DNA of 9,067 nucleotides from a virus (lineage: Monodnaviria > Loebvirae > Hofneiviricota > Faserviricetes > Tubulavirales): IMG/VR virus record IMGVR_UViG_2660238346_000022; one strand, written 5' to 3'. The position numbers were made by a program, and so were the translations under genes. Shown piece by piece: positions 6,128-6,903 of this stretch. The notes under the pieces are model-generated. The model worked only from the letters and a program-made list of their open reading frames with translations, had not been told where the DNA came from and did no database searches. Each line of letters starts with the position of its first letter. The first letter of the stretch is position 1.

Positions 6128-6430
6128 TCAAACTTTTTTGACCTGTAACAGAATAACCATATCCGTGCGGCTCTTCTCGTCAGACTTCTGACTCCAGCTC
6201 TTTGGCAGAAATGATAATCCTGTGTTGGCCTGCGAATCCTTGTTTTCTGCCAGACCACCCAGCGCAAGTTCAGGCGGCAACGCATACTGACGCCTGAAAA
6301 TATCTTCCTGAGCCAGCTGTATCGCTGCATTGAGCGGAATACGGTCAGCAAAAAAGGCCGGAGACGAGGCATGCACACACGCCGAAGTCAAAAAAAGAAA
6401 TGCTGTCAGCAAGTTCAGGCGGCAACGCAT
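6128..6430 (-). CDS. Putative small secreted protein (100 aa) whose 5' part lies inside the 145-bp repeats
   Basis: ATG at 6430: [21 protein letters not shown] then [13 protein letters not shown]... (Sec-type signal peptide, likely cleavage after VHA); unique C-terminal 45 aa encoded at 6128-6264. No convincing RBS, so the call is tentative. Confidence 0.35.
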
Positions 6431-6850
6431 ACTGACGCCTGAAAATATCTTCCTGAGCCAGCTGTATCGCTGCATTGAGCGGAATACGGTCAACAAAAAA
6501 GGCCGGAGACGAGGCATGCACACACGCCGAAGTCAAAAAAAGAAATGCTGTCAGCAAGTTCAGGCGGCAACGCATACTGACGCCTGAAAATATCTTCCTG
6601 AGCCAGCTGTATCGCTGCATTGAGCGGAATACGGTCAACAAAAAAGGCCGGAGACGAGGCATGCACACACGCCGAAGTCAAAAAAAGAAATGCTGTCAGC
6701 AAGTTCAGGCGGCAACGCATACTGACGCCTGAAAATATCTTCCTGAGCCAGCTGTATCGCTGCATTGAGCGGAATACGGTCAACAAAAAAGGCCGGAGAC
6801 GAGGCATGCACACACGCCGAAGTCAAAAAAAGAAATGCTGTCAGTAAGTT
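6265..6850. repeat. Four tandem copies of a 145-bp direct repeat
   Basis: Units at 6265-6409, 6410-6554, 6555-6699 and 6700-6844, plus a 6-bp partial. Units 2-4 are identical; unit 1 differs at one base (g at 6346 vs a). Confidence 0.9.
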
Positions 6851-6903
6851 AATCAATCTCATCATGTTATACCGTTAAGTGCTGTTTTTCAGTCATGAAG
6901 ATA

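Follow-up and report, generated by a model that had tools for sequence, protein, structure and literature searches.

In Ff phages, the secretin gene IV is located after gene I and before the intergenic region. Ff miniphages, or defective interfering particles, have lost most of the coding genes and have a duplicated origin. In Vibrio cholerae, CTXphi and RS1 form heterogeneous tandem prophage arrays at dif, in which RS1 relies on a complete neighbour. CTXphi encodes no secretin and exits through the host EpsD, and RS1 is devoid of the whole morphogenesis block. The YpfPhi/CUS-2 phages of Yersinia pestis and E. coli are associated with dif as well, and their own secretin, 'GspD2', is intact (PMC10354491).

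We analyzed a locus of a filamentous prophage in a stretch of E. coli DNA of 9067 bp, hereafter the window. Judging from its sequence, the locus at positions 6128–6865 represents a decayed gene IV, encoding the exit-pore secretin of the pIV/GspD type, which has lost its middle part by deletion and has its 5' piece amplified fourfold; the probability of this reading was estimated at about 0.87. Decay of this sort is an ordinary fate of genes in E. coli prophages and is of a kind already known.

The intact homologue from a sister prophage resembles pIV of the Ff phages f1/fd/M13 (PDB 7OFH) in being encoded between gene I and the intergenic/att region and in combining a signal peptide with a PF00263 domain at the C-terminus. 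Unlike Ff pIV, the copy in the window has only residues 1–56 and 359–402, with the 5' piece present four times. By description, the prophage is also similar to YpfPhi/CUS-2, being an enterobacterial filamentous prophage at dif with a Zot-like pI and its own secretin of the T2SS type; however, the secretin gene in the window is rearranged, whereas GspD2 is intact. A folded inverted dif-like single-strand attP is shared with CTXphi. Unlike RS1, the window copy is damaged in gene IV alone, and we infer that it would depend on a neighbour. The breakpoints at short direct repeats, the rolling-circle ssDNA replicon and the putative complementation by a helper are features in common with Ff miniphages; the differences are that one gene was hit, that the duplicated piece is coding and that the element is a chromosomal prophage copy.

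Prophage Organization

An exact-sequence look-up identified the window as the entire contig CCCD01002328.1 (9067 bp) of GCA_000939215.1, a draft E. coli assembly. The filamentous prophage on it integrates at dif and has the gene order of Ff phages. According to the ORF list and Pfam matches, all phage genes were encoded on the minus strand in the order II-V-(VII/IX)-VIII-III-VI-I-IV-attP. The replication protein gene (3181–5283; PF05840, 2.7e-48) was followed by a 141-aa ORF and small ORFs, an 86-aa coat-like ORF, the gene of the pIII-like protein (734–2098; PF05357), a 119-aa ORF and gene I, which encodes a Zot-like assembly ATPase (7625–8827; PF05707, E 1.8e-09) and directly precedes the secretin slot. 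Between Zot/pI and an array of 145-bp repeats lay a block of 312-bp repeats (6904–7509). The location of the array between Zot and the attP-like region (5982–6074), given in a preliminary description of this DNA, was confirmed.

The replication protein belonged to the HUH endonuclease family of P2 gpA (PF05840) rather than the Ff gpII type. Among named phages, its closest relatives were those of the Vibrio inoviruses fs2, VFJ and Vaf1 (29–30% identity). Zot consisted of 400 aa in the window, while most relatives had 403 aa. In the pIII-like protein, a Gly/Ser-rich linker was encoded by tandem repeats of 39/78 bp and 30 bp (1230–1481), and this protein comprised 425, 451 or 454 aa across related contigs, which indicates that the linker is length-variable too. 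A regulatory module upstream of the replication gene (5187–5806) contained a 66-aa ORF (5556–5756, plus strand) and an 82-aa ORF (5174–5422, minus strand), neither of which had a Pfam match. This module had no counterpart in three related sequences (L001, L004 and L006), where a different module with a 62-aa ORF was found instead; this arrangement resembles that of the heteroimmune rstR alleles of CTXphi. Neither the locus nor 5.3 kb of the backbone had a DNA match in the phage reference collection. The phage is known only as prophages.

The 145-bp Array and Its Reading Frames

Tandem Repeats Finder detected the array at 6264–6850 with a period of 145 bp, 4.0 copies, 99% matches, no indels and a score of 1160. 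Such an array is far beyond chance, and the tandem repeats noticed in the preliminary description are real. The four units, all read on the minus strand, occupied 6699–6843, 6554–6698, 6409–6553 and 6264–6408, and each corresponded to nucleotides 23–167 of a secretin gene, encoding residues 8–21, which belong to the signal peptide, and residues 22–56, which belong to the mature part. The units were alike except for a single SNP, with G at 6348 in the last unit (6264–6408) versus A at 6493, 6638 and 6783, which results in a Val to Ala change.

The array was flanked by the two ends of the same gene. The native 5' end of the secretin remnant (6844–6865, minus strand; ATG ATG AGA TTG ATT AAC TTA C) comprised nucleotides 1–22 of the gene, matched exactly the start of the 402-aa secretin CDS of the closest relative, L001 (from 10357 downwards), and contained the first copy of a 7-bp microhomology, AACTTAC. 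The 3' remnant (6128–6263, minus strand) consisted of the last 44 codons (LGGLAENKD...LLQVKKV) and the stop codon, and corresponded to just the tail end of the PF00263 domain.

The frame arithmetic of the preliminary description agreed with the ORF list and the protein look-up: the unit length is 3n+1, the start at 6430 gives 100 aa, those at 6575, 6720 and 6865 give 76 aa each, and only the last junction ATG (6430) reads into the unique 3' segment. The 100-aa ORF (6128–6430, minus strand; stop at 6128–6130) was identical to the 'hypothetical protein' WP_044696899.1. It is a chimaera of a start made by the junction, secretin residues 5–56 and secretin residues 359–402. The 76-aa ORFs, also on the minus strand, began with MRCRLNLL... 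at 6575 and 6720 and with MMRLINLL... at 6865; an exact-sequence look-up of the 76-aa ORF returned WP_072048653.1.

The claim that every unit carries an ATG followed by a signal peptide stood in part. The repeats do stem from a coding sequence and, judging by their letters, carry a true signal peptide, but the unit, which comprises nucleotides 23–167 of the gene, does not include the native ATG at 6865, and the iterated 'ATG' is an out-of-frame TATGCG belonging to the Tyr-Ala codons of the parent gene. A junction ATG, such as that at 6430, is in frame because of the 3n+1 shift. From the sequence around it, the ATG at 6430 arose incidentally through the rearrangement and is not an iterated start codon. 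The N-terminus of the ORF looks like a Sec signal peptide, with a basic n-region, a hydrophobic core and V-H-A. By inspection, no Shine–Dalgarno motif was found before 6430 or 6865, as had been noted earlier for this locus; the native secretin gene also has no obvious one, so that its absence speaks neither for nor against a gene here. A consensus scan revealed no sigma-70-like site upstream of 6865 or within the units.

Comparison with Intact Secretin Genes

Positions 5980–6900 were used as a megablast query against 5426 complete E. coli genomes. Near-full coverage was obtained in 18 genomes, where each match coincided with a CDS annotated as a secretin of the GspD type and spanned 1250–1400 bp versus 921 bp of the query. 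The closest relative among the complete genomes was L001 (NZ_CM128593, strain 100416), containing a tandem pair of prophages beside hipA; its phage sequences flanking the locus shared 98.7% (5.2 kb) and 98.6% (2.4 kb) identity with the window. Where the window has the repeats, L001 has an intact CDS of 1209 bp (402 aa) annotated as GspD. Its product matched PF00263 at 9e-25 (residues 250–397), and the f1 pIV structure 7OFH was its best PDB match (4.4e-15). In tblastn searches it had about 26% identity with gene IV of fd/f1 and about 44% with several gut inovirus secretins.

Positions 6128–6263 of the window were the last 136 nt of this CDS. Each unit corresponded to L001 10191–10335, a segment present there in a single copy, and the alignments to 10191–10342 showed 98.7–99.3% identity. 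An in-frame stretch of 906 bp, or 302 codons (L001 9285–10190), had no counterpart in the window. Thus, codons 1–56 and the last 44 codons of the secretin were retained, and codons 57–358 were deleted. In BLASTP, residues 5–56 of the 100-aa ORF aligned with the same positions of the secretin (50/52, 96%), and its residues 57–100 with residues 359–402 (44/44). The signal-peptide sequence of the remnant was identical to that of the intact secretin; the periplasmic part past residue 56 was deleted. Neither the 100-aa nor the 76-aa ORFs of the window had a Pfam match at E ≤ 0.01, the secretin domain included. In all complete E. coli genomes holding gene IV at this position (22/22), the gene was in one unbroken piece, and no relative had the repeats inside an intact secretin gene. 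The same position and the amino acid identity of 96–100% with an intact member at both ends indicate descent from the secretin family, and 6128–6865 is a pseudogene remnant of a member of this family, not a functional member.

This result bears on the preliminary interpretation of the locus as a gene of a small secreted protein, a candidate cargo in the place where CTXphi carries ctxAB. A signal peptide and a 'unique C-terminal segment' are seen here because they are the two ends of the secretin. The ORF is composed of secretin residues 5–56 (96% identity) and 359–402 (100%), and the secretin is intact at this place in relatives; it is therefore built entirely from the core gene IV, which the 22 complete genomes have there in full, and not from a cargo gene. 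Related phages do not preserve the 100-aa frame; theirs is the larger one of 402 aa. The homology search that had been proposed for the small protein found no Pfam domain, and both its halves matched the phage secretin by BLASTP.

The same alignments bear on whether the array could be a non-coding functional repeat serving as origin iterons, a packaging signal or regulator sites. Its proximity to attP and to the 312-bp repeats (6904–7509), which are also variable in number, would suit such a function. However, the unit is 99–100% identical to a single-copy coding sequence within the intact gene in all relatives, and the units are near-identical, that is, recent, and private to one allele. The ssDNA fold of the 145-bp unit was ordinary in comparison with shuffled sequence (z −0.07), and a Rfam scan of the whole window gave only two sub-threshold matches, both due to the attP palindrome. 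A structured or origin-type non-coding repeat was rejected on these grounds—single-copy coding sequence in relatives, ordinary fold, no Rfam match—and a non-coding function of the array is hardly credible.

Junctions and Origin of the Rearrangement

Two kinds of junctions were found on the minus strand. The duplication junction, ...GAACTTG|CTGACAGC, was located at 6406–6415 and again at 6551–6560 and 6696–6705. Its native counterparts are TTAACTTA|CTGACAGC at nucleotides 17–23 of the gene and GAACTTG|CCAGCGAT at nucleotides 161–167; the duplication took place between imperfect direct repeats, AACTTAC (nucleotides 17–23) and AACTTGC (nucleotides 161–167), 145 bp apart. The deletion junction at 6258–6269, GAACTTGC|GCTGGGTGG (...AACTTGC|GCTGGGTGG), joined codon 56 to codon 359, and the deletion started at the nucleotide directly after the repeat AACTT[A/G]C. 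To within 1 nt, the deletion and the duplications break at the same point.

A hairpin, TTCAGGCG-N14-CGCCTGAA, with a stem of 8 bp was found at 6271–6300 (minus strand, which is the gene-sense and viral strand), the stem being present in both the MFE and centroid folds. The hairpin occurs in every unit and ends 5 nt upstream of both kinds of breakpoint. It is a candidate replication-stalling site, which may have made this spot a hot spot of rearrangement. The sequence AACTT[AG] was found on the viral strand at the array breakpoints only; outside the array, neither a phiX174-like origin (CAACTTGATATTAATAAC) nor further AACTTR was found on that strand. As reconstructed from the junction sequences, slippage or template switching at the spot combining the hairpin and microhomology would have produced the rearrangements, probably in the course of single-strand (rolling-circle) replication.

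The breakpoints could also be explained by the phage HUH endonuclease (PF05840, P2 gpA family) having cut and rejoined pseudo-origins, with no polymerase slippage involved. The assignment of the replication protein to PF05840 at 2.7e-48, the restriction of AACTT[AG] on the gene-sense (viral) strand to these breakpoints and the breakpoint common to the deletion and the duplications to within 1 nt, both junction types following AACTTG, speak for this possibility. AACTTG is the cleavage hexamer of phiX174 gpA, which cuts after it (CAACTTG|A); however, this resemblance was spotted post hoc. Moreover, the 5–7-nt microhomology is just what slippage requires, and no AACTTR candidate origin is present elsewhere in the phage, so the true nick site is probably different. 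We regard cutting by the endonuclease as unlikely and retain slippage or template switching as the preferred mechanism. Whichever way it arose, the locus is a clean natural case of a deletion and a tandem amplification with one shared breakpoint beside a hairpin in an ssDNA replicon.

Occurrence of the Allele and Number of Units

Fifty-mers across both junctions were absent from the 5426 complete E. coli genomes, and exact-pattern scans for both junctions retrieved nothing from IMG/VR, the GTDB species-representative genomes or JGI metagenomes. The broken allele is rare and surfaced only via the exact-protein look-up, by which the 100-aa ORF WP_044696899.1 was found on 14 contigs. Ten carrier contigs (L003–L012) from nine draft assemblies were compared. 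Both junctions, that of the deletion and that of the duplication, and the marker SNP of the unit adjoining the deletion were identical in 10/10 of them; this recurrence indicates that the allele is real and inherited. The number of units was two in L007, three in eight contigs and four in the window, so that the copy-number variability suspected from the window was indeed found among related contigs. Partial forms of the protein have accessions of their own (WP_044812553.1 and WP_248785060.1), and a form with a single unit and the in-frame deletion (P0004, MMRLINLL...) was found in ENA assemblies. One assembly, GCA_000941435.1, contained the broken allele on two contigs (L008 and L009) differing at two positions (units 2 and 3), which suggests two defective copies in one genome, unless these are sequencing errors. 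No relevant literature on the assembly accessions was found.

The exact count of four is in doubt, as it comes from fragmented assemblies of short reads. The source assemblies, all from one accession batch, are drafts of roughly 500 to >2500 contigs, the unit counts vary (2, 3, 4) with all else being identical, and units 1–3 of the window are indistinguishable, so their number is uncheckable from the sequence. There is an appreciable, though minority, chance that the count of four is an assembly artefact and that the true state is two units or, in the extreme case, an intact gene. That the whole rearrangement is an artefact is scarcely conceivable. The two sides of the deletion junction share at most 2 nt, and an assembler k-mer graph therefore cannot have invented it; the duplication junction together with the SNP in the last unit demands at least two distinct units; both junctions were present in 10 contigs, and the partial forms of the protein hold separate accessions.

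Coding Potential of the Remnant

Translation from the native ATG at 6865 would yield a frameshifted peptide of 76 aa, and the junction ATGs would give further 76-aa peptides and the 100-aa chimaera. In the latter, the signal peptide is followed by 35 residues from the N-terminal part and 44 from the C-terminal part. In all products of the remnant, the N domains and nearly the whole β-barrel are missing; by this domain content, a channel is unlikely to be formed by any of them.

The deletion preserves the reading frame, and all ORFs retain the signal peptide. The persistence of the allele in several isolates is compatible with neutrality and also with selection. A genuine small secreted protein, either a cargo or a neo-functionalised product exported as the 100-aa precursor or the 76-aa peptides, would agree with the intact Sec-type signal peptide and the open 100-aa frame, with the identical allele in at least nine assemblies, including two contigs of one assembly, and with the single-unit in-frame form P0004 in ENA assemblies. 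For example, it might poison the secretin multimers of competitors or ease the envelope stress caused by pIV. Nevertheless, the ORF is made wholly of the two ends of a known gene and has no Pfam domain, its start at 6430 is a by-product of the frameshift junction with a ribosome-binding site no better than others here, and the native start meets a stop after 76 codons. In addition, the copies are all identical and hence give no sign of purifying selection, and the allele is missing from the 5426 complete genomes. We consider a small secreted protein very unlikely, and the remnant is best regarded as a broken secretin gene. The 'hypothetical proteins' WP_044696899.1 and WP_072048653.1 are then wreckage of the secretin and not candidates for toxins or effectors.

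A phase-variable contingency locus was considered as well. With two or more units, translation from the native ATG ends after 76 codons, and the ORF opened by the last junction ATG is always that of 100 aa; phase variation was rejected because no number of units restores a secretin.

Intact and Defective Copies at dif

The attP site (5982–6074, minus strand) was formed by a GC-rich hairpin between two inverted dif-like arms, with the best dif match at 6074–6047. Its crossover region (6061–6073) marks the end of the prophage copy that bears the remnant. The viral strand of attP folds with −40.2 kcal/mol (z −10.95), leaving an internal bubble of 6 nt at the central region. In L001, the array is bounded at both ends by chromosomal dif/phage hybrid sites and adjoins hipA, and the junction between the copies retains the complete attP palindrome.

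The ends of the window (1–598 versus 8469–9067) were 99.5% identical, with 2 mismatches and 1 gap. Being near-identical and not identical, they indicate that the window covers slightly more than one unit of an array with non-identical copies and is not a closed circle. The contig L003 was 99.5% collinear with the window over 6.7 kb and extended beyond the end of the window, where it had another Zot gene and an intact secretin of 402 aa. In L004, the remnant and an intact 402-aa secretin with PF00263 were present in adjacent copies, in the order converse to that of L003. A copy that could supply the missing function resides together with the broken one in both of these sibling assemblies. The evidence best supports a heterogeneous array of tandem prophages at dif composed of intact and secretin-defective copies.

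By analogy with CTXphi/RS1 and the Ff helpers, the copy bearing the remnant would be export-defective alone and would persist by means of the neighbour's pIV acting in trans. Most likely, then, the locus is a non-functional remnant of gene IV in a prophage copy dependent on the secretin of its neighbour. Arrays at dif of E. coli can accordingly mix export-competent and export-defective copies, which matters when virion production is predicted from sequence. It is conceivable, though improbable, that the allele has been selected and is not debris: by taking one pore gene out of a multi-copy array, as pIV stresses the envelope, or by exporting a fragment of pIV that bears the signal peptide and disturbs the pore assembly of rival phages, it would make the copy an RS1-like satellite, perhaps born at AACTTG| cut by the HUH endonuclease of the phiX174/P2 type. 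If so, it would be the E. coli counterpart of CTXphi/RS1, with a copy parasitising its intact neighbour.

Repeats Adjacent to the Array

A motif of ~57 bp, TTCCGCTTCCTCG..CACTCGCTCAC..CGTTCGGTCGC...CTGCGGCGAGCGG, was found three times in the block of 312-bp repeats (6904–7509), at 6903–6960, 7215–7272 and 7554–7611. It matched unannotated DNA of at least 5000 enterobacterial plasmids at 80–90% identity; these plasmids are mostly small, mobilizable and ColE1-like. We take the motif to be the segment beside ori of pBR322/pUC that holds the PriA (n') primosome assembly site, and its region may be the complementary-strand origin of the phage. Among relatives, the copy number of the ~57-bp motif/312-bp repeat ranged from one (L002) to five (L004). 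A record of 362 kb from Citrobacter youngae (OV141394.1) matched the repeat region at 6880–7197 with 99.4% identity in six places; hence, the range of this phage family, or at a minimum that of its repeat block, extends beyond E. coli.
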